From an uncultured Anaerolineaceae bacterium (lineage in GTDB: Bacteria > Chloroflexota > Anaerolineae > Anaerolineales > Anaerolineaceae), in contig CALMGN010000035.1 in NCBI GenBank assembly GCA_937863605.1, forward strand, positions 1 to 60,329: DNA of 60,329 nt, written 5' to 3'. A program made the position numbers and the translations under genes. Under the pieces are notes generated by a model, which saw only the letters and a program-made list of their open reading frames with translations, was not told where the DNA came from and did not search any database. Below, in pieces: positions 4,468 to 17,668 of the stretch (within the stretch, counting starts at the first letter, position 1; each line of letters begins with the position of its first letter).

Positions 4468-7137
4468 TTATCGCGAGATCGCCATTTTCATCAATTTGCC
4501 ATCGCGGTTCATCGTGACACGGGCATAATGGAAATGATCGTGCTCGCCCATTTTGACCTGCCGTCGGAAGATAACCACAGTACGATCGGCGACCTGTTTT
4601 TGAGCTTGCTTGCGCCCAAGATTCAGCCCACCACCCCGGTGAACCTTGCTCTCGACTTCGAATTGCTGATGGTTTACGCTGATCTGAGCGTGATCAAGGC
4701 CGGGCAGGTACGGCGAAACCGCCTGTTTGGCAAACTGCAGCCATTTATCACTGATGGCCTTTTCTTCATTTGCTTCACTGGCGTTGTCGCTGATGGTTTT
4801 CACTAATGGGTAGTTCTGGAAGCGCACCGCTTTTTTGGGACTGACCTGCACGCCATCGTGATACACCAGCGGGTCGCCGTACAACACGAAGGAAATCAAC
4901 GTCTTCTGGTCTTCCCCATCCAGGAAACCCTGGCGGTTGGTCATTTCACGCACCATCGAAACTTTTGCCTGCACTAGTGCATCCCCGACAGAGTAGCCTT
5001 CCCGCAGTGCTGACCAAAAGTAGAAACCGAGCAGATCAGCCCCGACCAGCGGGGTGGTAACGGAACCGTAGGAGATGCAGGTCGAGCCTACGACTGCCAA
5101 AGTCCCAATCGATAAGAAACGTAGTGCCAGCGACGTCAGTTCAGTTTTCTGCATGGTTAAACCGCCGTAACAAGCCTCGGTGAACACCACCTTGGGGGAA
5201 TGACCATTTTTCGGCAGATCGGTCAAGCTGAGCGCGACCGGATATTCCGGACCGCTGCCCCGTTCTAGCGGGTCACCCTGGCCGTACCATTCGGCCGTTT
5301 CAGACAGACCGTGCAAATTGTAGAAACTAAGCGGGGAGCTGGTGATTTTATTCTGGTTAAAGCTGCCGCTGTTGGTCGGGGGTGACACCTGCAAGGTGCG
5401 GCCCTCACCGATAGGGCGGTAGGTTGCCAGAGATGAGCGGCGCCAGACGGAAGCCGTGTAACCGAATGCGCCGACTTTTCCGTTGGAACTGGGCGACGGC
5501 AGGAACCAGCGCCACCAGGCCAACCACTGGGTCACCCGGCGAATGGTTTTTCCACCCTTTGCGGCCGTATTCTGGTATTTGACTGCCTGGCGCAGCTGCT
5601 GCAGGAGTAAACCAGCATCTTCACCAACCTCACCCATAATGCGGCCAACTGGCCACTCAGGCACAAAATAATTCGAATCCAACGAGGCATAGGGATTGTC
5701 TGAAAGAACTTCCTCATCCATGTCATCGGTCGGGTTCGGCAGGCGGTGGAACGGAACCACCTCAGGCCCGCCTACAATGACCAGAGCGCCGATCCGGCCG
5801 CCTTTTTTGGCCAGGGCTTTGTCCAGGTCGGCAATGGCAAGTTTGAGTTTCCAGGGGTCAACCTGGCCGGTGGTATTGATGCCCAATTTGCCGGTAGTTT
5901 CAATATCATCCGGGTAAAAGACCATCGAGCCCCAACCCGCGCGTTTTTTAACTGCATCCGACAACCGGGTCATTTCCTTATCAATTACTGCCAGCGTCTG
6001 ATCGCCGTACTTATTGCGAAGACCGGTGCGCGATGAGAACACCACATAGATCGGGAAACGCCCGTCAGCCTTGGCGGTTTCTGGTGATTTCATCCGTTTG
6101 GCCAGCCGCTCGAATTCTTTTTCAGTGTTTTTCAACCAGGCGGGTGGATTTAACTTTGCCTCCGCTGCTGCGGCAGCAGCCTTGGCTCTGGCCTTTGCCT
6201 GTTCCTCAGCTACCGCCTCCTGACTATACGCGTATTGCGCGGTTTGCAGGAATGCATTTGCTTCATCAGCCGACGGCTCAGCCGAGGAAAACGCCGGAGC
6301 CACTGCTCGTGCTGAGGATGCCAGGCGGTTCCAACCCATGCTGGTCGCCACGCTGGCCGGGATGGCAATATCCATTCCGATTTCCATGCGTTCCGGCCAC
6401 AATGGCTTGTACGGGTGATGTGCACCCCACCAGCGGCCGGTCACCTGGCCGGCAGCATCGGCTGCCACTGACTGGTGCAGGAGGGTCACTGCGCTTGCCT
6501 CGTCCCCCATCTCAAGTTTGGCTTCTGCCAGCGCTAATTTAAATATCACGGTTTCAGGCCACTGGCTATGATACAGGTCAGCAAATTTCAGCAGGTTGGC
6601 CTGGTCACGATGCGCCCGGATGACTTCCAAATGGGTTATCGCGGCCAGCAGCTGGTCCTGGGTCAACGCCAGTACTTGATAGACCATGGTTTCAGCGGCA
6701 TCCATGTTGCCGTCTGCCAGAGCCCGCCGGGCATTCCGCAAAATGGTGCTCCACCCGGGCATGGCGATCGAGGGATCGACACGCTGACCAAGGATGAAGA
6801 TGTCCACCAAAACCCGGGTGTACTCCTTTTGATTGCTTACACCGTAAGCCTTCGCCAGCGCCTTTTGAGCGGTAATGTCTTCCGGGTCCATCCGGCATAC
6901 TTTTTCGAGGATTTGCACCGCTTGCCCGGTCTTGTCTTCCAGGCTGAAGATTCGCGCCAGGGTGCGGTTGACTTCCAGGTCACCGGGATAAATGGACAGC
7001 CAGGTCAAGGTCATCTGGCGGGCAAACCGGAATTCTTTGGCTTCCATGGCGGCATTCAATACCATGACCATTGTTGAACGTGATAGGGAACGTGTGATTT
7101 GGGGATTGTTGAGGTTGGTTGGGTTGTTTACAGGCAT
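4468..7137 (-). CDS. TPR-containing, gingipain-like C25 (clan CD) cysteine peptidase, no signal peptide
   Basis: N-terminal TPR-like helices. C25 motifs LVIVGGPEVVPF, SDNPYASLD..PEWPVGRI and C-terminal FVLYGDP. Catalytic dyad YNLHGLSETAEW (His609) and VFTEACYGG (Cys656). SD AGGAGG upstream; overlaps the upstream gene by 10 bp. Confidence 0.8.
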   Translation of the reverse strand: MPVNNPTNLNNPQITRSLSRSTMVMVLNAAMEAKEFRFARQMTLTWLSIYPGDLEVNRTLARIFSLEDKTGQAVQILEKVCRMDPEDITAQKALAKAYGVSNQKEYTRVLVDIFILGQRVDPSIAMPGWSTILRNARRALADGNMDAAETMVYQVLALTQDQLLAAITHLEVIRAHRDQANLLKFADLYHSQWPETVIFKLALAEAKLEMGDEASAVTLLHQSVAADAAGQVTGRWWGAHHPYKPLWPERMEIGMDIAIPASVATSMGWNRLASSARAVAPAFSSAEPSADEANAFLQTAQYAYSQEAVAEEQAKARAKAAAAAAEAKLNPPAWLKNTEKEFERLAKRMKSPETAKADGRFPIYVVFSSRTGLRNKYGDQTLAVIDKEMTRLSDAVKKRAGWGSMVFYPDDIETTGKLGINTTGQVDPWKLKLAIADLDKALAKKGGRIGALVIVGGPEVVPFHRLPNPTDDMDEEVLSDNPYASLDSNYFVPEWPVGRIMGEVGEDAGLLLQQLRQAVKYQNTAAKGGKTIRRVTQWLAWWRWFLPSPSSNGKVGAFGYTASVWRRSSLATYRPIGEGRTLQVSPPTNSGSFNQNKITSSPLSFYNLHGLSETAEWYGQGDPLERGSGPEYPVALSLTDLPKNGHSPKVVFTEACYGGLTMQKTELTSLALRFLSIGTLAVVGSTCISYGSVTTPLVGADLLGFYFWSALREGYSVGDALVQAKVSMVREMTNRQGFLDGEDQKTLISFVLYGDPLVYHDGVQVSPKKAVRFQNYPLVKTISDNASEANEEKAISDKWLQFAKQAVSPYLPGLDHAQISVNHQQFEVESKVHRGGGLNLGRKQAQKQVADRTVVIFRRQVKMGEHDHFHYARVTMNRDGKLMKMAISR

Positions 7138-10100
7138 GAGTTTGCCTCCTGACAGTTGTGTACCAGGTTCAATGCAACAATCGCGCCAAGCTGCCGGCGA
7201 ATATTGACATCAGATGGAGCAAGGTTGGCGGCACGCCGAAGCATGGATTCAGCCGCCGGGTAATCCTTTCCGTCGCGCAGGATCAAGCCTGCCTGATAGA
7301 ACGAGCGGTAGTCATCGGGAGCGGTACGCATGGCCTGTTGGTAGGCTGTTAGTGCCTGCGAGAAGTCGCGCCGGTTGGTGTAAACCCGACCCAGGTCAAG
7401 GTAGGCATCGGACTGGTTGGGTGCTAGCCGGGCTGACTCAGTCAGATGATGCACGGATTTATCCAGCTGGCCCGAGTCGGCGAACAGGCGACCAAGCAAT
7501 AAATGAATTTCGGCTTTTTGAGGGTCAAGGCGCAAGGCTAATAACGCAGCTTTTTCAGCTTCCGCTGCCCGGCCAGTTTCTGCCAGCGCTGCAGCGTAGG
7601 TACTGATCACCTGGTCATTATCCGGGTAGCGTTCTGCCAACGGCTGCAGCACCTGAACTGCTGCTTCAGCACCGTGCAGCCGGTAAATCAGCCGGGCGCG
7701 TTCGCTTTCCAGCACCAGCGTTCCAGGCAATTCTTCGACCGCTTTGTTTAAGGTTGCAAGCGCTTCCTTGTCCTTGCCGCGGGCAACCAGGATCTTACTG
7801 GACAGTAGGCGGGTCTCCGGAACCATCGGCGCCATTTTCTCGGCGTCGCGGGCATAATCCATTGCCTTGCGATCATCCCCAGCAGCCAGCAGGATCTCTC
7901 CGCTGAGCACCAACGCTTTATAGGTGTCATCCCCGCTGTGCTGACCCGCCTGCCCAGCCGCTTTGAGCGCGTCTGCGTATTGCTTGTTGGCAAACAAAGC
8001 GCGGCCATAATTCAACCAGGCCGGGGCGTGCGTCGGAGCGATCTGGACCGCTTTGGCCAGCACCCCGACCGCCTTTGGAGCATCCTGTAATGTCTGGAAA
8101 ACCGCGCCTAGTTCGAGTGCCACGGTCAGGTTGGCTGGCATCAGTTCCATGGTCTTTTCCAGATGGTTCTTGGCTGCTTCGGGTTCATTGGATTGCAACG
8201 CCAGGGTTGCCGCCCAGTGCTGCCAGCCAGCTTCATTCGGCCAGTAGATCAGGGCTGTTTCGACAGCTTCCAACGCCCGGCCGATATCACCTGATTTTTC
8301 AGAAGTCTTCGCCAGGGTGATGTGGCAAACGGGATTTTTTGGTTCCAGGGCGACTGCCCGCAGCGCTGACTGCTGATTAAAGTCCAGTTTATTGTCAAGT
8401 TGGACGGAAGCCAGTTGAATGCAGACCTGCGCGTGGTCGTTAAATTGCTCTCCTACCTGGCAAGCGCCTTCGGGATTTCCGGTTCGGTTGAGCGCCATCA
8501 CCAACGCGGCAGCGTCCTCTCCGGTCATGGATAGAGCTGCAAATCCGCGAACACTGGCTGGTGAAGGCTGGAATACAGCCTCCCCGCGCACCTTCCAGCG
8601 CTCGATTTCCGTGGCATTATTCAGCTTGCGCAGTTCAGTGATCGACTGCGTGAAGCGGGTGTAAGCCGCCTCGCTGACGACCGATTTCTCGGGTAGGTGG
8701 GTTTCACATCCTAGTGCTGAACCGGTCAAATACCATTCAGCCGCCCGCACCATGGCGCGCGATAAGCGCATCAAAGCTAACGGTTGGGCCGGCTGGCGGC
8801 GGACGACGGAATCCAGCAATTGGATCGCATCTGCCCAGCGGTAGAGTTCAGCTGCAGCCTCAGCCAACCCGAGCAAGGTGGAGTCAGGCGTAATAACCGG
8901 AAGTTGATCATGGTCAGTGCGAATGGATTTACCCTTCAATGCCGGTCTTACCCGACGCCACAGGTCTGCATACAGTTCCTCCGCCTCGGCGGAATCCCCG
9001 GTGCGCACCATTACCCGCACTCGGGCAGCCAACAATCGGGTCCCGTCAGGGTCAAATTGCAAACCCTCGTTGATTTTGCGGTAAGCCAGATGCACATCTC
9101 CGTGTTCCAGGGCATATTCAGCTTGCAGGCTGATTAAGCCTCCCATCCAGGGATTGTTCTCATTAATTTCAGTTGGTTCATAATCAACCGCCGCCAGAGC
9201 GAGTGCTCGGTCGTCCTGTAATAGCTTGGCAGCCAGATCAGCTCCAGCGAACCGGTATTCAGCGTTCCCTGGTTCAAGTTCAATGGCTTTTTCAGCATGC
9301 GCCAGTGCTTCGCTGAGGTTGTCCACTTTTTGCAGCAGGCGCGTGAAACGCTGATGAATATCGACCGGTGAGGACGCGATGGCAAATGGTGCCAGACTAT
9401 GGGCAGTTTTCACTACCGGCTGGCTGCCGGACGTCTTGGCGCTCTCGCTGAGTTGGAGAGCATGCTCGAGGGAGGTCAGCGCGGCCTGGGTCCGGTTTAG
9501 CTTATCCTGCAGATCGGATTGGAAGGTGTAGTAGACTGCCTCAGTGGGGTTGGCGCGGATGGCGCGTTGAGTCAAATCCAAGGATTGGTCATACTTGTTG
9601 TCGTTTTTATTCAGGACCGCCAGTTCGAACAGGAGTGTCGCTTCCGGCTCGCCACTCACCTCGACAGCCTTCTCTAGGGTCGAAAGGGCGCTGGTTGTAT
9701 CTTCCATCTGCAGGAAGATGTGCGCTGCCTTCCGTAGCTGGGCCACAGTCACAGACGTATTGTCAACCACATTGGACAGTTCCATACGGCTGGCTTCCGG
9801 ATTGTCGTTGGCCAACAGCGCTTCAGCAAGCGAAAGGCGTAACTCTACCGCATCAGGCTGGACCTCGACGGCAGCTTTCAGTCCTTGAATGGCTTTGTCC
9901 AACTGGTGGATACGAACCATCAGATTGGCGTACCAGGTCAGGTTGCTGACGTCATCCGGCGCTAATGCCAGTGTCTGTTCGGCGGCAGCCGCGGCGGCTT
10001 CAGCCAGGTTGCCTTCTGCAAATGCATCCGCTAACAACCGGTTTAACCCGATCGATTCGGGATTGGCGGTCACCGCGTTTTGCAGCGAAGCCAACGCAGT

Positions 10101-12575
10101 CTCGACTTGGCCCAGGTTTAAGGCAGATCGGCCCAGGCCAGCTTGCATGCGCCAGTACCATTCTTCTTGAACAGCCTCAGGCAGCTCCATTAACTGGCTG
10201 TACGCTCCAAACGCAGGTTCGTTCTCGCCGCGCAGCAGCAGAACCTCAGCGGTCAACAGACGCGCTTCGAAATATTGCGGCTGCAAAGCAACTGCCTTTT
10301 GTAAGGCATGGAAGGCTTTGGTCATCTTGTTGAGATCAACAACCAGCTGCTCGCCTGCCAGGTAGGCTGTCGTGTCGCCAATCAGCGACTGGGCGTACAA
10401 CACATACCACTCGGCTTGTGGATTTTCCGACTGCAACGCGATCTCAAGAATGGACAACCCATCCTCGATAACGCCTTCTTTAAGCAGCAATTTCGCATGC
10501 AGAAAAGCCAGTTCATCGTGCACGCGCCATCTACCACGCGCCTTTTCAACCACTACCAGGGCTTCCTGCTTGTAGCCTAGCGTAATTAGCGCCTCTGCCA
10601 GTGCCAGCGCAATTTGAACCGATTCCGGAGCAAGCCGGGCAGACTGCCGCAAGAATGGCAGCGCTTCGGACATTTGATTGTTGTCAAGGTACGCTTTGCC
10701 AAGGGCGTAATGCAGTTCGGCTGAATCCGGGGCGGTCAACACCGCTGCCCGCAGCGTTTCCAGCATCTGCTGGTTGTCGCCCTTGCGGCGGTAGGCTTCT
10801 GCCAGCTCAAACCAGGGCATATATTCTTCCGGGATGAGCCCGATGGCTTTTGACAAATGGGCAATTGCTGTGTTCAGGTCGCCCTGCGCCAGGGCTGCTT
10901 TCCCCATCAGAGTGAAAGCCATGCCGTGGTCGGGGTTTTCCGCTAAAATTTTCTCGCAAATAGCGTAAACTTCGATAAATTCCTGGGCGCTAATCGCGGT
11001 CGCAGCCAGAGCCAGTTCGTCATCGATTACCGGAGATTGCCCCATTTTGACAACCTTACGGCGTTCTTCGAGAGCAGAATTCCAATCTTCACGGTCTTCC
11101 CAGACCTCGGCCAGCTTGCGCAGGTGCTCGGGTTCGTCAGGCTGCAACAGGATGGCGCGTAATCGGTAATTGACTGATTTTTCATCGTCGCCCAACCCAT
11201 GGCTTGCTTCAGCCAGCCAGTCGAGCAGCTTGACATCTTCCGGGCGACCCGCAAGGAATCGCTCCGCCGCCTGAATTGCCTCAGCGTGCAGCCCCTGACT
11301 GGTCAGCGATGCGAGCAAGCCGCTGGGATCCCAGTCGTAAATAAATTGACCTTTTAACTCGACCGGATTCCGATCGATTTCATCCAACCAGGTGTTAACC
11401 GCGTTACGGGCAACGTCCTGACCTTCCCGGGTATCACTGGAGGCAGATTTCGGAGCATGTTTGCTCAAGCGGGCGGCGATGGTTTCACTGTTATTTGGCA
11501 AGCCAGCCAGGCTTCCGTTAATGATTCCGTTGCCAACTGCGAACATGGCTTCATTTTGCAGTTGAGTTGATACCGGCATCTGCGCCATCAAGTTAGCGCA
11601 TTCCTGATAAAACGCGTCATTGGCCTTGCCTTCGCCGTCTAGGACGGTTGCCATTTGCAAGGTCGCACCGGCTAGCCAGTGCTGCAGCAGCTTACGGGTC
11701 TTATCCAGGTAGATACCTGCTTGAAGCGGCCGGCCAGCGATCTGGTACAGGGTGGCTGCCAGTTGATTGTCCAGCATCTTGCGCGACGCGGTTACCCACT
11801 CAGCATGGTCAGGCTGGAAAGGTTCCTCCAGTCCCGCGAAAAAGTCTCGTCCGGTGACCAGCAGTTGATCTGCAATTCCCGAAGCCAGCGCAAAGCGGCC
11901 TTTGCCGGACAGATAGCGCAGCCATTCCACCTGGTATTCGACCACCAGCTGACTCATAAGATCATGGAACATCTTGACCTGGGTCTGGGTCTCCAGCGGG
12001 TTGCTCAAAATAATATGTGAAATCCAATCAATGGCCGGGTGCATGAAATCTTGTGGCAGCAGCGATTCCAGGAAATCCCATTTGTCCGGAATCATGCCGT
12101 ACAGGCAAGCCAGCGGGGTTTGCCACAATTCAACCAGGCTGGTTGCGGTTATGGTTTGCACCGAGAGCAGCTCGCCCAAAAATCCACGCCAGGACTGCGT
12201 TTTGCGGCGGCGTTCGCGCATCGCTAACGCCAGCAAGCCAGCCTGGGCCAGGCTGGCCGGCGGTTGACCATTGCGCAGTGTATTTTCCAATAACTCTAAC
12301 GCTTGCTTACGCAGCGTAACTTCGATTCCCGGGATATGTTCCGCGGTTAAATCCGCAAAACTGACCCGGTTGCCAAGCGGCCGTAAAGCCAGGCTGGCCG
12401 GGCTCCAGGATGTCGGGATGACACTTTCATCCGATAACACTGAATGCAAAAATTCTGGCTGTTGGAGAGAATTCCACACCAACGCATCTTCCGATAAAGC
12501 AGCCAGCACATACGGCGCATCCGCTGGAGACAAGACCCGCCTGAGCCCAATCAATATTTCCGCAGGTTGCATCAT
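7128..12575 (-). CDS. Very large tetratricopeptide-repeat protein (1815 aa)
   Basis: Many TPR-type repeats from about aa 430 to the C-terminus (e.g. AYLDLGRVYTNRRDFSQALTAYQQAMRTAPDD). The N-terminal ~420 aa are helical and unrecognised. Confidence 0.88.
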   Translation of the reverse strand: MMQPAEILIGLRRVLSPADAPYVLAALSEDALVWNSLQQPEFLHSVLSDESVIPTSWSPASLALRPLGNRVSFADLTAEHIPGIEVTLRKQALELLENTLRNGQPPASLAQAGLLALAMRERRRKTQSWRGFLGELLSVQTITATSLVELWQTPLACLYGMIPDKWDFLESLLPQDFMHPAIDWISHIILSNPLETQTQVKMFHDLMSQLVVEYQVEWLRYLSGKGRFALASGIADQLLVTGRDFFAGLEEPFQPDHAEWVTASRKMLDNQLAATLYQIAGRPLQAGIYLDKTRKLLQHWLAGATLQMATVLDGEGKANDAFYQECANLMAQMPVSTQLQNEAMFAVGNGIINGSLAGLPNNSETIAARLSKHAPKSASSDTREGQDVARNAVNTWLDEIDRNPVELKGQFIYDWDPSGLLASLTSQGLHAEAIQAAERFLAGRPEDVKLLDWLAEASHGLGDDEKSVNYRLRAILLQPDEPEHLRKLAEVWEDREDWNSALEERRKVVKMGQSPVIDDELALAATAISAQEFIEVYAICEKILAENPDHGMAFTLMGKAALAQGDLNTAIAHLSKAIGLIPEEYMPWFELAEAYRRKGDNQQMLETLRAAVLTAPDSAELHYALGKAYLDNNQMSEALPFLRQSARLAPESVQIALALAEALITLGYKQEALVVVEKARGRWRVHDELAFLHAKLLLKEGVIEDGLSILEIALQSENPQAEWYVLYAQSLIGDTTAYLAGEQLVVDLNKMTKAFHALQKAVALQPQYFEARLLTAEVLLLRGENEPAFGAYSQLMELPEAVQEEWYWRMQAGLGRSALNLGQVETALASLQNAVTANPESIGLNRLLADAFAEGNLAEAAAAAAEQTLALAPDDVSNLTWYANLMVRIHQLDKAIQGLKAAVEVQPDAVELRLSLAEALLANDNPEASRMELSNVVDNTSVTVAQLRKAAHIFLQMEDTTSALSTLEKAVEVSGEPEATLLFELAVLNKNDNKYDQSLDLTQRAIRANPTEAVYYTFQSDLQDKLNRTQAALTSLEHALQLSESAKTSGSQPVVKTAHSLAPFAIASSPVDIHQRFTRLLQKVDNLSEALAHAEKAIELEPGNAEYRFAGADLAAKLLQDDRALALAAVDYEPTEINENNPWMGGLISLQAEYALEHGDVHLAYRKINEGLQFDPDGTRLLAARVRVMVRTGDSAEAEELYADLWRRVRPALKGKSIRTDHDQLPVITPDSTLLGLAEAAAELYRWADAIQLLDSVVRRQPAQPLALMRLSRAMVRAAEWYLTGSALGCETHLPEKSVVSEAAYTRFTQSITELRKLNNATEIERWKVRGEAVFQPSPASVRGFAALSMTGEDAAALVMALNRTGNPEGACQVGEQFNDHAQVCIQLASVQLDNKLDFNQQSALRAVALEPKNPVCHITLAKTSEKSGDIGRALEAVETALIYWPNEAGWQHWAATLALQSNEPEAAKNHLEKTMELMPANLTVALELGAVFQTLQDAPKAVGVLAKAVQIAPTHAPAWLNYGRALFANKQYADALKAAGQAGQHSGDDTYKALVLSGEILLAAGDDRKAMDYARDAEKMAPMVPETRLLSSKILVARGKDKEALATLNKAVEELPGTLVLESERARLIYRLHGAEAAVQVLQPLAERYPDNDQVISTYAAALAETGRAAEAEKAALLALRLDPQKAEIHLLLGRLFADSGQLDKSVHHLTESARLAPNQSDAYLDLGRVYTNRRDFSQALTAYQQAMRTAPDDYRSFYQAGLILRDGKDYPAAESMLRRAANLAPSDVNIRRQLGAIVALNLVHNCQEANSCL

Positions 12576-12622
12576 CGCTCCTGTTCTCTAATGGGAGGAA
12601 ACAAACGTCAAAAACGCACTGG

Positions 12623-12952
12623 CTATCGGAGCTGAAGTGCCAGACCGTACGAGGCCGCCAGCAGCAGCAATCCGATGATGATCAGGAAGACGCCAATGCC
12701 AGCGGCTGATTTAATCAATCCGTTCAACGATTCAACCAGCGTTGACGCATTGCCAACCAGTCCGGCAACCTCTTCCGCGATCCCTTTTTGAGCCAGCGTG
12801 GCTGTTTGCTCGGCAATTTTGCGTATATCGCCGCCCAGCACCCGCGAGATCAGGACGATTACCCCGATAATGATCAAAAGGACGCCGATAATCAATGCAA
12901 TCCCTGCCAAAATCAGGAAAAACTCAGTTGAAGTCAATTCTAAAAAGTTCAT
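12623..12952 (-). CDS. Small membrane protein: two TM segments flanking an amphipathic/coiled-coil helix
   Basis: Hydrophobic FFLILAGIALIIGVLLIIIGVIVLI and IGVFLIIIGLLLLAASYGLAL. Start reassigned to the ATG at 12952, 6 nt after AGGAGG, because the longer ORF start would overlap the sigma54 promoter. Confidence 0.75.
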   Translation of the reverse strand: MNFLELTSTEFFLILAGIALIIGVLLIIIGVIVLISRVLGGDIRKIAEQTATLAQKGIAEEVAGLVGNASTLVESLNGLIKSAAGIGVFLIIIGLLLLAASYGLALQLR

Positions 12953-12986
12953 TCCCATCCTCCTATACTCTGTCAGATGGGAATGA

Positions 12987-13002
12987 TGCAAGTAACGTGC
13001 CA
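12987..13002 (-). promoter_or_regulatory. Sigma54 -24/-12 promoter for the TM-TPR-protease operon
   Basis: Minus strand TGGCACGTTACTTGCA matches TGGCAC-N5-TTGC with the canonical 10-nt GG-to-GC spacing. It is intergenic, ~35 nt upstream of the start codon. Confidence 0.88.
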
Positions 13003-13017
13003 GATTATTTATTCTGC

Positions 13018-14190
13018 CTAATTTTTATGGGCGATATCGGATGGCAAATCGGGCAGGTCGATCGTTTGGCCGTCGCTGAACAGGATCGCATGTTCAATGG
13101 CGTGACTTAGTTCGCGGATATTGCCTGGCCAATTGTATTTCATCAAGGCTTCCATGGCGCGCGGGGTTACATTTTCAACATTCTGCCCCATCCTGACATT
13201 GCGCCGGCGTAGGAAAAACCCAACCAATTCCGGAATATCATCTTTTCGTTCGCGTAGCGGCGGCAGATGCAGATCCACCACTTTCAGGCGGTAATAGAGG
13301 TCTGAGCGGAACTGCTCTGAAGCGATCATATCCTTCAGGTTACGGTTGCTGGCTGCCAGCAGTTGGACATCGACCTTAATCAAGGTAGTGCCGCCCACCC
13401 GCCGGAAAGCGCTCTCTTCAATCACGCGCAGCAGTTTGGCTTGCATATCCAATGGCATGGACGAAATTTCATCCAGGAAAAGCACGCCGCCATCTGCCAC
13501 CTCCATCAAGCCGTGCTTGCGTTTCTCTGCGCTGGTGAACGCTCCAGCCTCATAGCCAAATAATTCCGATTCCAATACCGTGCTCTGAATGGCAGCGCAA
13601 TTGATGGCGATATAGGGTTTATTTGCACGCGGTCCGCTGGCATGGATGTATTGTGCCAGAATATCTTTGCCGACCCCGGTCTCGCCTGTGATCAGCACCG
13701 AGACCTGCATTACACCAGCCCGCTGAGCAAATTCCAGCATCCGCGTCACCTCCGGGTTATGCCCCGGGACAAATTCGAGGTTGCTCTTCTGCGTCTCGCG
13801 GAAATGCGCCAGCTCACGCCGCATGCGGACAGTTTCAAAGGCGCGCTGAATGGAGGTCTCCAGTTGATCTAATTTGAACGGCTTGGAGAGAAAATCATGC
13901 GCCCCATTTTTCATCGCATCGACCGCCATTTCAATGTCGCCGTGCGCGGTGATGATGATAATCGGTGGACGCGTCGGCATATTGGCGGTTTCATAGAGCA
14001 AGCTGGGACCGTAACCGTCAGGCAAAGACACATCCAGTACGACGACATCGCCGTCACCCCGTTGTAAAAACTTCCGTGCCTCTGCCAGAGTGGCGGCGCC
14101 CAGCACTTCATAGTTGAGCGGGGTTAAATAATCAGCAATATTCGCACGGGCATTGTCTTCGTCATCGACGACTAAAACGGTAATCGACAT
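13018..14190 (-). CDS. Sigma54-dependent response regulator (REC + AAA+), lacking the C-terminal HTH
   Basis: REC motifs VVDDE, VLDVSLPD, ITAHG, FLSKPF. Walker A GETGVGKD, ESELFGYEAGAFTSA, Walker B LFLDEI, FRSDLYYRL, WPGNIREL. The protein ends ~28 aa after WPGNIREL. Confidence 0.93.
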   Translation of the reverse strand: MSITVLVVDDEDNARANIADYLTPLNYEVLGAATLAEARKFLQRGDGDVVVLDVSLPDGYGPSLLYETANMPTRPPIIIITAHGDIEMAVDAMKNGAHDFLSKPFKLDQLETSIQRAFETVRMRRELAHFRETQKSNLEFVPGHNPEVTRMLEFAQRAGVMQVSVLITGETGVGKDILAQYIHASGPRANKPYIAINCAAIQSTVLESELFGYEAGAFTSAEKRKHGLMEVADGGVLFLDEISSMPLDMQAKLLRVIEESAFRRVGGTTLIKVDVQLLAASNRNLKDMIASEQFRSDLYYRLKVVDLHLPPLRERKDDIPELVGFFLRRRNVRMGQNVENVTPRAMEALMKYNWPGNIRELSHAIEHAILFSDGQTIDLPDLPSDIAHKN

Positions 14191-16142
14191 CAGGCTTTGT
14201 CCTCAATGGTAGGTAGGGTTACAGTGAAAACGGTACCGCCTGGGAAAGTGTTGACCGAAATAACCCCGCGGTGGGCGGTGACAATACGCTTGGTAATCGC
14301 CAATCCAAGACCTGTACCGGTCGATTTGGTGGTGACAAACGGCTCAAAAATTCTCCCCCGAATTTCATCGGGAATGCCGGGCCCGTTATCTGAAACCGCA
14401 ATTTCAACCTGCTTCCGATTGGCGCCATCCGTAGTCACACCAAGTCTCACCGAGAGTATACCGCCATTTTGGCTCATTGCGTCGGTGGCGTTGCTCACCA
14501 GGTTGGTAAACACCTGCTCCAGGGCTCGCCAATCTCCCATTACCTTCGGCAAGCCATCCGGCACCTGGTAGACCGGTGACACGTTTACCCGCGACATGCG
14601 CGGACGCCAACGTTCAATGATGCGCATGATCAGATTGCCCATTTCCACCGGTTCCTGGAAGGGCTCGTACGGTTTGGCGTAGCTCTTAAGCACTTCCATC
14701 TGGTGATGCAGGCGCTGGCAATCATTCTCCATGCGGTTGATCAGGTCAATGCTGGGGTGATCCGGACCCAGTCGGCGCGCTAGCACCTGGGCGCCGGTGG
14801 AAATACTATTGATCGGGTTAAGCACCTCATGCGCGAATACGCCCATGAATTCACCCAGCAGTGCGCGCTGCTCCAGTTGACGAGTCTGGGTGCGAATTTG
14901 TTCATGTTCGCTAATATCGCGGAAAATGACCACCACCCCGGCTATGCGCCCGTCAGATTCGTAGGACAGCACGTTTACATCTGCCGGGAAGGTCTGCCCG
15001 TCACGGTGATGCAGGGTAATGCTCTCCAGGTTTGGGGTGGAAATCCCTTCAGCGGCACTGGCTAAAACTGCTGCAATGCGGTCCGGGCTGATGAGGATAT
15101 TTTCGACCGGTTGTCCGGTGACTTCATGGTCGGTGTATCCCAGGATCAGTTCCCCCGCCGGGTTAATCGCAGCGATGGTCAAATCCGGGTTCAAGACCAG
15201 AATGCCATCCTGGACGTATTCATACATGACCTCACGTGCGGTGGTTTTCCGGGAGCTTTCATGGATCTCTATCGATAAATTTTCGCTCCGGATGGATTGC
15301 TCGTAAGCCATGCTGATGTAAGACCCAAGCAGCTCCATCAATGCCACCAGCAGCGGTGGGGGCTGCGAATCGATGCCGCCAACCACCAGTAGGCCGATGG
15401 CAGCTCTCGGGTCACCCAGAGCTACCGACGCCACGTAAAACAATCCGCCAATCCGCGCCGAGCGGTGCAATTCGGTGACCACCCGTTTGCCTGGCACCCA
15501 GACGTTGGAACCCGCCAGGCGGATCAGGTCGCTGGCAGGCAAGGTTTCAGGAAAAAAGGCAATCCGTTCCTCGGTCTTGACTTTGCTCAGCTCAGGGGCG
15601 TCATTTTGTGCGTGATAGATGCATACCAGATTGGTATCGAATAGCTCGCCTGGGATGGCGATCATCTGGCTCAAAGCTTGATCGAGCTCCTGTCCGCGCG
15701 CGATTCCGGGCAGGGTTTTAAGGATATGGATGATCTTTTCCTGCCACTCGCGGGTGTTGGTTTGATGCTCCACCAGCGGGGTAATGCGCAGCACGTACCA
15801 TTGACTGGCAGCCTCGACCTGGGTGAAACGCACAACCACCGGCAGGGTCGGCCGGTTGCGTAATTTCAGGGACAATTGGATAGCTTCCCCGGTATCGAGC
15901 GCAGTAGGATCAAAATTTTCGAACAGGGCTACATCGGGAGTGTTAGCCACTTCTGCAGCCGAGTAGGCAGTCAATACCAGGAAGGGGCTGTTGGCATGTA
16001 AAAAGCGACCCTGGGCGGCGTCGTACAGCAGCGCAGGGTCATCTACCAAATCCAATAGCATCCGAGCCAGGTGCCCCGGGTCAATTTTTTGTGCTGGTTT
16101 GCCCCATAAGGCCTGGAAAGGAGATGAAGATTTTTCTCTCAT
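14190..16142 (-). CDS. Soluble PAS/GAF-like/PAS sensor histidine kinase
   Basis: H-box FAHEVLNPI, N-box QVFTNLVSNATDA, DNGPGI, FEPFVTTK and GTGLGL. PAS motif DGILVLNPDLTIAAINPAGELILGY. No TM segment. Stop overlaps the regulator ATG. Confidence 0.92.
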   Translation of the reverse strand: MREKSSSPFQALWGKPAQKIDPGHLARMLLDLVDDPALLYDAAQGRFLHANSPFLVLTAYSAAEVANTPDVALFENFDPTALDTGEAIQLSLKLRNRPTLPVVVRFTQVEAASQWYVLRITPLVEHQTNTREWQEKIIHILKTLPGIARGQELDQALSQMIAIPGELFDTNLVCIYHAQNDAPELSKVKTEERIAFFPETLPASDLIRLAGSNVWVPGKRVVTELHRSARIGGLFYVASVALGDPRAAIGLLVVGGIDSQPPPLLVALMELLGSYISMAYEQSIRSENLSIEIHESSRKTTAREVMYEYVQDGILVLNPDLTIAAINPAGELILGYTDHEVTGQPVENILISPDRIAAVLASAAEGISTPNLESITLHHRDGQTFPADVNVLSYESDGRIAGVVVIFRDISEHEQIRTQTRQLEQRALLGEFMGVFAHEVLNPINSISTGAQVLARRLGPDHPSIDLINRMENDCQRLHHQMEVLKSYAKPYEPFQEPVEMGNLIMRIIERWRPRMSRVNVSPVYQVPDGLPKVMGDWRALEQVFTNLVSNATDAMSQNGGILSVRLGVTTDGANRKQVEIAVSDNGPGIPDEIRGRIFEPFVTTKSTGTGLGLAITKRIVTAHRGVISVNTFPGGTVFTVTLPTIEDKA

Positions 16143-16151
16143 GGAATGGGA

Positions 16152-17555
16152 TTAGCCAGAAAGTGAGACTCGGCGAAGATGCGCCGGTAAAATTCCTTCC
16201 ATGGCCCGGTACTTGGCAACTGTGCGGCGAGCGACGTCGTAACCTTGCGTGGACAACATCACAGCCAATTGAGAATCACTTAATGGGTTGCGTTCAACCT
16301 CAATCAGCTCGCGCAGCGCAGTCCGCACATTCAAACTCCGGTCAAAGAAGGAGGCCAATGGAATGATGCGCTTATTGGGTAATTGTACCGTTTTATTTGA
16401 AACTGCGCGCGAAATTGTGCTCTCGTGTACTTCTAATTCTACCGATAACTTCGCCCTGGTGAGCGGTTTGATATAGCGGTCGCCACGCGTAACATAATCA
16501 CGCTGAAAAACCACTACATTGTGCATCAAACGCTGCATGGTGTGGTTGCGCTGCTGAAGGCATTTGACAAATAACGCCGCCCGGTCCAGTTCGGACTTCA
16601 TGCCTTCTTTAGCTTCTTCGCTCGCCTGGCGGGTAGCCTGGCGGAAGAGCTGATTGATGCGTAGCGTCCCGCGAATCGGCATGATGATCTCGACCACCAG
16701 GGGATTGTCGGGGATGTCATTTAAATAACTGATGATGATGTCGGGATAATAGTAGGTTTGTCCGCCGCTGGAGGACGGCTGCCGGACGTCACCCCAATGC
16801 GCGCGGCCTGGGAAGGGGTTCAGGTTTTCACTGATGAACTTAACCGCCTCTTGAATTTGTGCCAGGGTGGTTTTCAACATTCGGGCCAATTCAGGGTACT
16901 GATGGCGGCTGAGCTGGTCCATGCCCTGACGGACAATGGCGCCAGCCATCGCCGGGACATAGCGCGATTCGCTTAGCACATCCAACTGCACCAGCAAAGC
17001 TTCCTGCGGTGTGTACGAGCCAACCCCCAATGGGTCAGCCCGCTGGATAATTTTTTGAATGTGTTCAACCTGCGATGGTAGGACATGAAAATAGCGCGCC
17101 ACATCGGTCAGCGGGACAGTCATAAAGCCGTCCTCGTCCAGGTGGGTCAACAGGTAAGCTGCGATTTTGCGGTCATTCAATTCCATGTCCATCGCGATTT
17201 GACGCAAAACATAGGTCGGCAGATCTTCGACAACTGGCGAAAGCGGTTCATCGGGGAAATTTTCTGCGCTTCCGGCGCCGGATGGATAGAAATCTTCGCG
17301 CGGTGAAACGAACACAACCGGTTCGTCACCTGGCTGTGAGCTCGGCCGGCTGCATACCGGACACATTCCCCCGTTTGGCAGCACGCGGTGGCAGCTCGGA
17401 CAGCGGTGCTCCTCCACCAACTCCAATGCCGGATTCGTTAATTCTTTTTGAATTTGCTCGTACAGCTCATCCACTGTCTGGTTGAGCAGGGTCATAGTCT
17501 GCGCCAGGTGGGCTGTGGTTACCGGTCGGATTTGGGTGCGCTGGAGTTGAAACAT
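16152..17555 (-). CDS. rpoN: RNA polymerase sigma-54 factor
   Basis: Gln/Leu-rich region I, NPALE, LDEDGF, DPLGVG, HESTISRA and the RpoN box ARRTVAKYR. Confidence 0.96.
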   Translation of the reverse strand: MFQLQRTQIRPVTTAHLAQTMTLLNQTVDELYEQIQKELTNPALELVEEHRCPSCHRVLPNGGMCPVCSRPSSQPGDEPVVFVSPREDFYPSGAGSAENFPDEPLSPVVEDLPTYVLRQIAMDMELNDRKIAAYLLTHLDEDGFMTVPLTDVARYFHVLPSQVEHIQKIIQRADPLGVGSYTPQEALLVQLDVLSESRYVPAMAGAIVRQGMDQLSRHQYPELARMLKTTLAQIQEAVKFISENLNPFPGRAHWGDVRQPSSSGGQTYYYPDIIISYLNDIPDNPLVVEIIMPIRGTLRINQLFRQATRQASEEAKEGMKSELDRAALFVKCLQQRNHTMQRLMHNVVVFQRDYVTRGDRYIKPLTRAKLSVELEVHESTISRAVSNKTVQLPNKRIIPLASFFDRSLNVRTALRELIEVERNPLSDSQLAVMLSTQGYDVARRTVAKYRAMEGILPAHLRRVSLSG

Positions 17556-17579
17556 GGCATATCCCTATTTTCTAGTGGC

Positions 17580-17608
17580 AGTATACAAGATTAGCCGATT
17601 AGATGCAA
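17580..17608 (-). promoter_or_regulatory. Candidate sigma70-type promoter for rpoN, overlapping the sigma54 site
   Basis: Minus strand TTGCAT (17603-17608), 17-nt spacer, TATACT (17580-17585). Confidence 0.45.
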
Positions 17609-17619
17609 GTTATATGCCA
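17604..17619 (-). promoter_or_regulatory. Sigma54 -24/-12 promoter upstream of rpoN
   Basis: Minus strand TGGCATATAACTTGCA with correct spacing, ~48 nt upstream of the rpoN ATG. Confidence 0.85.
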
Positions 17620-17668
17620 GGTTAATTTACCAGGCTTCATGGTAAAATTTTGACCAGACAGGTAACCT

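Follow-up and report, generated by a model that had tools for sequence, protein, structure and literature searches.

A conserved sigma54 locus with a TPR and gingipain-fold protease in Anaerolineales and its predicted division and wall regulon

The window analysed here is a stretch of 60,329 nucleotides (positions 1 to 60,329 of contig CALMGN010000035.1, assembly GCA_937863605.1) from an uncultured Anaerolineaceae bacterium, whose genome (G000) has 2.86 Mb in 299 contigs and is 92% complete. The window contains a locus of six genes that encode sigma54 (RpoN), a PAS histidine kinase, a receiver-AAA+ (REC-AAA+) activator, a two-helix membrane protein, a giant tetratricopeptide repeat (TPR) protein and a TPR protease of the C25 (gingipain) fold, the last three of which we call the trio. 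As the initial annotation had stated, the six open reading frames (ORFs) are co-oriented, and the two overlapping pairs are kinase/activator and TPR/protease. All six lie on the minus strand (Table 1), with intergenic spacings of 9, -1, 65, 47 and -10 nt. Pfam and NCBIfam bore out its domain calls for sigma54, the PAS kinase, the REC-AAA+ activator and the giant TPR protein. Scans for sigma70 promoters and terminators gave chance level only. Among the titled records with proteases 85-89% identical to the window protease is a Bellilinea sp.; judged by sequence, the host is a Bellilinea-like Anaerolineales bacterium, and the suggestion of a filamentous Chloroflexota host is supported.

Table 1. 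Genes and predicted promoters of the locus, in window coordinates
Feature	Position	Strand	Remarks
Predicted sigma54 -24/-12 promoter of rpoN-kinase-activator	17602..17620	-	26.5 bits; positive feedback predicted
rpoN (sigma54), 467 aa	17555-16152	-	Sigma54_CBD/DBD; CxxC..CxxC insert after region I
PAS histidine kinase, 650 aa	16142-14190	-	PAS, HisKA, HATPase_c
REC-AAA+ sigma54 activator, 390 aa	14190-13018	-	REC, Sigma54_activat; no HTH; GAFTSA loop
Predicted sigma54 -24/-12 promoter of effector trio	12985..13003	-	stays with trio when unlinked from rpoN
Two-helix membrane protein, 111/109 aa	12958/12952-12623	-	two hydrophobic segments; family unnamed
Giant TPR protein, 1815 aa	12575-7128	-	many TPRs
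TPR + C25 (gingipain-fold) protease, 889 aa	7137-4468	-	His609/Cys656; C-terminal domain

The locus is real and conserved. Among 41 relatives, the protease was found in 36, one copy each, and rpoN in 38, also in single copy. The TPR gene lies directly upstream of the protease gene in 19 of 20 fetched stretches, and rpoN adjoins the kinase gene in all 14 fetched rpoN loci, with the activator gene next in 12 (the other two are cut by contig ends), so that the linkage expected by the initial annotation is indeed present across relatives. The whole six-gene order is intact in eight of the 20 stretches, in genome G252 and in a titled record of the cultured species Bellilinea caldifistulae (L030), where rpoN is cut by the locus edge. 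The locus is a single copy at a stable chromosomal position, with alaS, hflX, an M28 peptidase gene, or division and wall genes as neighbours. In a sample of 151 genomes of the class Anaerolineae, rpoN and the protease occurred together in 22 genomes, the protease alone in two (one match weak), rpoN alone in six and neither in 121. In a phylum sample of 201 genomes, rpoN was common (75 over the cut-off) and the protease rare (15 matches, three of them weak or partial), and three genomes had the trio with no rpoN match.

The regulatory half of the locus resembles a compact two-component switch. The kinase appears soluble, with no membrane segment and a maximum 19-residue hydropathy of 1.49, and the activator is the only REC-AAA+ activator found in G000. 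In Anaerolineales, the activator ends 37 residues past the WPGN motif and has no HTH_8 domain, while in other orders it is about 100 residues longer and keeps HTH_8. Its loop-1 motif is GAFTSA in the window, and GAFTGA also occurs among the orthologues. By sequence, the activator has the REC and AAA+ sigma54-interaction features of the FlgR/CtcC type without a DNA-binding domain, and its loop is putatively functional. In the available parts of PMC3162934, such proteins are grouped with CtcC and FlgR, the change of G5 to S in GAFTGA is listed as putatively functional, and sigma54 is noted in just 'some Chloroflexi'. RpoN itself carries a CxxC..CxxC insert (residues ~52-68; window 17330-17410) between region I and the core-binding domain, which recurs in 27 rows of orthologues whose N-terminus is intact, from several orders; the four cysteines likely bind zinc and could possibly form a metal or redox sensor. 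Among the loci L084, L085, L092, L099 and L083, we also observed a second hybrid kinase between the kinase and the activator in family f62, and a stand-alone receiver protein as the first gene of the trio operon in other orders.

Two -24/-12 sites had been described, one before rpoN and one before the membrane gene, and both are present with 16 of 19 bases identical. The 19-mer of the initial annotation, at up to two mismatches, matches only these two places in the window and matched none of 100 shuffles, a circular test in that the pattern was built from the two sites. The generic pattern TGGCA-N6-TTGC gives four matches against 1.32 expected, and five of 100 shuffles reach four, which as promoter evidence is suggestive only. 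The two sites are credible because they are conserved in position before rpoN (23 of 23 loci) and, at most loci, before the membrane gene. By matrix score, the rpoN site lies in the same place in all 23 loci of this order (the strict pattern used to train the matrix finds 21), and in G000 it is the best upstream site among 2570 called genes; in several other orders it is weak or missing. The autoregulation of rpoN suggested earlier therefore stands as a prediction from site position. Where the trio is unlinked from rpoN, the site is kept at 11 of 12 loci, none of which trained the matrix (two of the 11 are identical in sequence; L058, at a contig edge, was left out), and at the exception (G039) the trio stands at the tail of a glycosidase-ftsZ2 run having two sites. 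In contrast, none of the three trio loci from genomes without an rpoN match (G367, G218, G371) has a site. Thus, the site tracks sigma54, the trio is not always under sigma54, and the earlier claim of sigma54 control of the trio is upheld as a prediction. A further site 51 nt before the protease gene (11.2 bits) was set aside as a probable coding artefact within the conserved TPR coding sequence, yet G037 has an intergenic site there.

The trio begins with a membrane protein that has two hydrophobic segments by hydropathy and a conserved cytoplasmic-type loop; it had no match in Pfam or NCBIfam, and its look-alikes in the ESM Atlas are unnamed Chloroflexota clusters. The giant TPR protein has no signal peptide or membrane segment and is most conserved at its C-terminus. 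The protease had been called a C25 enzyme of clan CD, and the gingipain fold, the clan and an intact His/Cys pair are supported, although the Pfam search of the window protein itself gave no match; the family assignment comes from orthologues over the PF01364 cut-off, a stored copy with a precomputed PF01364 label, and fold searches. An AlphaFold2 model (pLDDT, the predicted local distance difference test, 83.7) matched Kgp in Foldseek with E 3.9e-9, and VIA-align gave Z 29.7 against RgpB (root-mean-square deviation 2.9 over 308 residues, range 362-765) and Z 25.9 against Kgp. The best non-gingipain scored Z 13.9, and the weaker fold matches were SAVED-CHAT, separase, DdvA and Csx29 (Z about 11-14). 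No CHAT match was found in Pfam for the window protein or its orthologues, and a sequence search of solved structures returned TPR matches only. His609 and Cys656, which we take to be the catalytic dyad from clan CD motifs, do not vary in any of the 175 aligned rows, which come from 120 proteins and 55 locus ORFs and are partly redundant. The protein has no signal peptide and no hydrophobic segment above 1.8, its N-terminus is made of TPRs, and a C-terminal domain spans residues ~770-889. Because of the C25 fold, the invariant His and Cys and the missing signal peptide, we predict an active, cytoplasmic TPR-C25 protease that differs from the secreted gingipains and cannot clearly be called a CHAT protein. 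Complex prediction with protease residues 16-889 and TPR residues 1690-1812 scored 0.51, 0.00 and 0.00 in three runs, and in one genome (G079) the TPR protein and the protease form a single frame of 2945 aa. From gene order, overlap and this fused frame, we infer a membrane-anchored complex of the trio. L098 (G088 C7) encodes two more relatives of the protease domain, both shorter, interleaved with small Cys-rich membrane-type proteins.

The initial annotation had described the module as self-contained, and this did not hold. When the upstream regions of called genes in G000 were ranked by matrix score, the two window sites were followed by sites before a second ftsZ (C230), a LysM lipoprotein gene (C214) and the gene of a 335 aa membrane protein (C179), and by sites before ftsL within dcw (C123), the gene of an LCP protein (C33) and others. 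Pattern scans gave 1-15 matches in 13 rpoN genomes and 0-8 in five rpoN-less genomes, so raw counts do not separate the two groups, whereas recurrence before orthologues does: in the 13 genomes, sites recur before rpoN in eight, the membrane gene in seven, the glycosidase-fold gene in five, the LysM, 335 aa and PP2C-like genes in four each, and ftsZ2 and ftsL in three each, while none of the 18 matches in the five rpoN-less genomes joined an orthologue cluster. In targeted tests, for which the matrix had been trained on no sites but those of rpoN and the membrane gene, ftsZ2 had a site above 12 bits in 15 of 23 orthologues (L045 left out) and ftsZ1 in none of 40. The site inside dcw, before ftsL-ftsI, exceeded 8 bits at a fixed position in 13 of 18 module genomes and in none of 12 that lack it, with antisense scores of 3.3 at most. 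As background, 18 and 46 of 2320 upstream windows in G000 exceed 12 and 8 bits, respectively.

In other orders the run simply continues. In families f18, f22 and f62, the genes that are scattered in Bellilinea follow the protease gene as glycosidase-fold, DivIVA-like and mraZ (f22, f62), Amidase_2, ftsZ2, LysM proteins, a SpoIID-domain protein and LCP (f22, f62); the DivIVA-like label is a weak match below the cut-off. The glycosidase-fold protein encoded before ftsZ2 (L100:14621-15997; G000 C230) has no signal peptide, and a model of the f18 copy is a GH39/PslG-like barrel. Its catalytic Glu motifs are degenerate in Anaerolineales and intact in several other orders, and some paralogues are fused to SpoIID domains; a sequence search of solved structures found nothing for the glycosidase-fold domain, the SpoIID matches coming from the fused members. 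Beside these genes, the unnamed 335 aa membrane protein (L102:5333-6340; G000 C179; unnamed Chloroflexota clusters in the Atlas) has a site in G000 and four other genomes, and a PP2C-like protein (weak match; L158, L179, L240, L247) has one in four genomes of three orders or families, with none found for the G000 copy (C207). Site-like sequences also stand before a Clp ATPase-like gene (16 bits in L188 of G037, 10 bits in G000 C131). In G051, which has rpoN and no protease, strong sites precede genes for an Amidase_2 and a GHL10 protein (L096, L256, L259), so a link between sigma54 and the wall may outlast the trio.

The second FtsZ goes with the module. At least two ftsZ genes are present in 19 of the 22 class genomes with rpoN and the protease, against 12 of the 129 others, and among 24 Anaerolineales genomes all 19 with the protease have two ftsZ and all five without it have one (L090, with no ftsZ match, was left out). 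In six Anaerolineales families, ftsZ2 lies two genes after the protease gene. One of the three class exceptions (G103, family f39) has a very divergent ftsZ-like frame of 27% identity directly after the protease gene (L282:11214-12824). FtsZ2 retains the Tubulin and FtsZ_C domains, the GGGTG motif and a C-terminal peptide, and scores 374 bits with TIGR00065 (cut-off 295). In a quick, unrooted tree with long branches, the 40 housekeeping-type FtsZ1, 39 of them from loci that contain ftsA, group in a single clade apart from all FtsZ2 (SH-aLRT, the Shimodaira-Hasegawa-like approximate likelihood ratio test, 100); the tree shows the FtsZ1 clade, not FtsZ2 monophyly. None of the Anaerolineales FtsZ2 copies is encoded beside ftsA. 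The catalytic position in the T7 loop lies five residues after the T7 Asn, and we take it to align with E. coli D212. It is Asp in 40 of 40 FtsZ1, and in the 24 Anaerolineales FtsZ2 it is His in 21 (His221 in G000), Asn in two and Ala in one. The equation was made by motif spacing (PMC8456036, available parts), and the available parts of bioRxiv 2024.12.31.629942 describe E. coli D212N as GTPase-defective with stable filaments. FtsZ2 of Anaerolineales is likely GTPase-weak, to judge from this residue.

Taken together, we propose with moderate confidence that the locus houses the master switch and the predicted protease core of a sigma54 programme in filamentous Anaerolineae, which a signal would trigger and which would amplify itself, leading to an alternative division or wall-remodelling event; the TPR-protease unit would be its commitment step. 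Gene content, folds, catalytic residues, conservation and site positions are its direct basis, from which we infer the phosphorelay, transcription from the sites, complex formation, the substrate and the outcome for the cell. An intracellular cue would activate the soluble PAS kinase, which would phosphorylate the REC-AAA+ activator. This activator, without a helix-turn-helix (HTH) domain and the sole one found, would fire all sigma54 promoters at once, and through the site before rpoN the switch would amplify itself. The programme would then turn on the membrane protein-TPR-protease unit together with the glycosidase-fold protein, FtsZ2, additional FtsL-FtsI, and wall proteins of the LysM and LCP kinds. 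Lacking the T7 Asp, FtsZ2 may build filaments, slow and stable, by which special septa are marked or held, and the TPR scaffold may tether the gingipain-fold protease, a predicted cytoplasmic enzyme, to the membrane and allow it an irreversible cut, most likely in a protein of division or of wall control. Of the enzymes in the proposed programme, only the protease has catalytic residues that never vary. The likely outcome would be filament fragmentation or a resting or dispersal cell type.

Several observations weigh against this proposal. Both rpoN and the protease are missing from the 121 class genomes counted above, and in some other classes the trio occurs without a detected rpoN and without ftsZ2 nearby, therefore the protease need not act on division. 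The relatives are not independent, genome counts overstate significance, and Fisher tests on them were given no weight. The rpoN-less genomes have raw pattern matches (0-8, not zero), two module genomes have just one and two, and eight of 23 ftsZ2 and five of 18 ftsL have no site. Since Asp is kept in six of nine FtsZ2 from other orders, loss of the GTPase is not universal. A weak search among longer proteins found no further TPR-protease fusion. Not every site ranked in G000 is held by orthologues at more than 8 bits: the LCP site is, in two of five and only within the genus. Candidates that were rejected or remained doubtful were the genes for a 366 aa protein (C211, none of five orthologues), a 1080 aa TPR protein (C203, none of four), an HTH protein (C259, none of four), Amidase_3 (C289, one of four) and CpaB (C68, two of four). 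The CpaB gene belongs to a Tad/Flp pilus operon (L104:3560-9352), which has an 18-bit site in G000 and sites at varying distances in the two orthologues. As for cell types, no differentiated cells were seen in Litorilinea, though its filaments shorten late in growth (bioRxiv 2025.08.19.671072; whether Litorilinea has the module is not established), Longilinea arvoryzae is listed as non-spore-forming (PMC12901349), and Brevefilum is without clear spore genes (PMC5481317), each as given in the available parts of these sources. The only sporulation-related features met were non-specific SpoIID/LytB domains in relatives and SpoVS, endospore genes not having been specifically searched.

The regulatory and division genes may also be read as a brake under stress or starvation, in which sigma54-induced, GTPase-weak FtsZ2 would co-polymerise with FtsZ1 and stall it, the wall proteins would thicken or repair the envelope, and the protease would reset the system without any new cell type. 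Loss of the T7 Asp in 24 of 24 Anaerolineales FtsZ2 and of the catalytic Glu motifs in the glycosidase-fold partner there would fit such a brake, as would an Agrobacterium FtsZ paralogue that inhibits division on overexpression (in the available parts of one FtsZ survey) and the general tie of sigma54 to the cell exterior (PMC3162934, available parts). However, a brake has no need for extra FtsL-FtsI from an internal dcw promoter, nor for a run that also has amidase, SpoIID-domain and mraZ paralogues, and the retained Asp outside Anaerolineales also argues against it; we consider this reading rather unlikely. It is distinctly unlikely, in our view, that the membrane protein-TPR-protease unit and the glycosidase-fold gene make up an older module that has a function of its own, e.g. 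in the processing of a surface polymer or protein or in the control of its export, and that is only co-regulated with division genes. The trio without detected rpoN or site in G367, G218 and G371 points this way, and so does the glycosidase-fold gene (GH39/PslG fold) after the protease in five of six such distant loci; a substrate link between the protease and FtsZ2 is putative. Yet in Anaerolineales the protease and the second ftsZ go together in 24 of 24 genomes, with ftsZ2 two genes after the protease in six families, and G027 and G033 have rpoN but neither protease nor second ftsZ (both assemblies are fragmented, so that loss is not proven).

Sacrificial cells are one known way of breaking filaments, and the locus could also be imagined as programmed death or anti-phage defence, with the protease as a caspase-like executioner, the membrane protein as a pore or holin-like effector, and wall hydrolases that lyse sacrificial filament cells. 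The clan CD fold, which SAVED-CHAT, separase, DdvA and Csx29 match less strongly (Z 12-14), and the amidase, LysM and SpoIID-type hydrolases in the run would suit it. On the other hand, PADLOC gave no match for the protease or the membrane protein and only generic TPR matches, the locus is a single copy at a stable position beside alaS, hflX and the M28 peptidase gene, and the co-regulated genes (ftsL-ftsI, ftsZ2, LCP) are synthetic. Cell death or defence is very unlikely. Of the developmental, stress or programmed-death module first suggested, the developmental option thus gains, while death or defence gains nothing, with no defence model for the protease and the locus fixed between housekeeping genes. 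Within the division and wall-remodelling programme that we favour, a bolder version can be offered only tentatively, by analogy: an unseen differentiation of Anaerolineae run by sigma54, in which resting or dispersal cells would be cut from the filament, the dead FtsZ paralogue would build a dedicated septum, and the membrane-tethered TPR-gingipain complex would, like a bacterial separase, cut the division machinery so that the step cannot be undone. Separase is a protease that commits a division step.

The arrangement had been thought undescribed, and neither the locus, the regulon nor the FtsZ paralogue was met in the literature searched, which covered few subscription papers and no supplements (those of PMC3162934 may list Chloroflexi activators or promoter contexts). 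The available parts of PMC10608941, PMC9871819 and bioRxiv 2025.09.29.679267 do not cover them, the FtsZ surveys do not mention Anaerolineae in the parts available, and the same literature contained no description of how Anaerolineae control septation, filament length or survival forms. The locus appears to bring together parts of familiar kinds in a combination that has not been described. Anaerolineae are filamentous bacteria that abound in digesters, sludge, sediments and soils; for them the locus offers a concrete programme that is open to test, in which the switch, the promoters and the outputs are named, and the cultured carrier Bellilinea caldifistulae makes the main predictions testable. 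If true, the programme would add a developmental regulon run by sigma54 and a natural GTPase-weak FtsZ with a conditional role, and the C25/gingipain family, known mainly as secreted virulence proteases, would gain a cytoplasmic job.

Each part has known counterparts. FtsZ paralogues of Agrobacterium (FtsZ1), archaea (FtsZ1/FtsZ2) and chloroplasts are likewise second copies outside dcw that were kept long, according to the available parts of one of the surveys; unlike them, Anaerolineales FtsZ2 is full length with a C-terminal peptide, has its catalytic Asp replaced, and is tied to a protease unit and to a predicted sigma54 promoter. The protease shares the catalytic-domain fold and the His-Gly and Ala-Cys motifs with the gingipains RgpB and Kgp (C25, clan CD), but at 13-16% identity it has no signal peptide, carries N-terminal TPRs and a different C-terminal domain, is predicted to be cytoplasmic and is encoded beside the giant TPR protein. 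Like it, separase and the TPR-CHAT proteases (Csx29 from type III-E CRISPR, DdvA from Myxococcus, and SAVED-CHAT) combine a TPR or helical regulatory part with a caspase-fold domain; the window protease is much closer to C25, has no CRISPR or defence context, and has its predicted place downstream of a sigma factor, whereas an anti-sigma would act upstream. The switch resembles Chlamydia CtcB-CtcC-sigma54, in which CtcC has a developmental role, and Helicobacter/Campylobacter FlgS-FlgR-sigma54, in that each has one kinase, one REC-AAA+ activator without a DNA-binding domain and one sigma54. Systems of the CtcC/FlgR type share with the window activator a variant residue at G5 of GAFTGA (PMC3162934, available parts). 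In contrast to both, the three genes are adjacent here, with a predicted rpoN autopromoter and the four-Cys insert in RpoN, the HTH loss is confined to Anaerolineales, and the predicted targets comprise, instead of flagella or secretion genes, a protease unit, a second FtsZ and genes of the wall.

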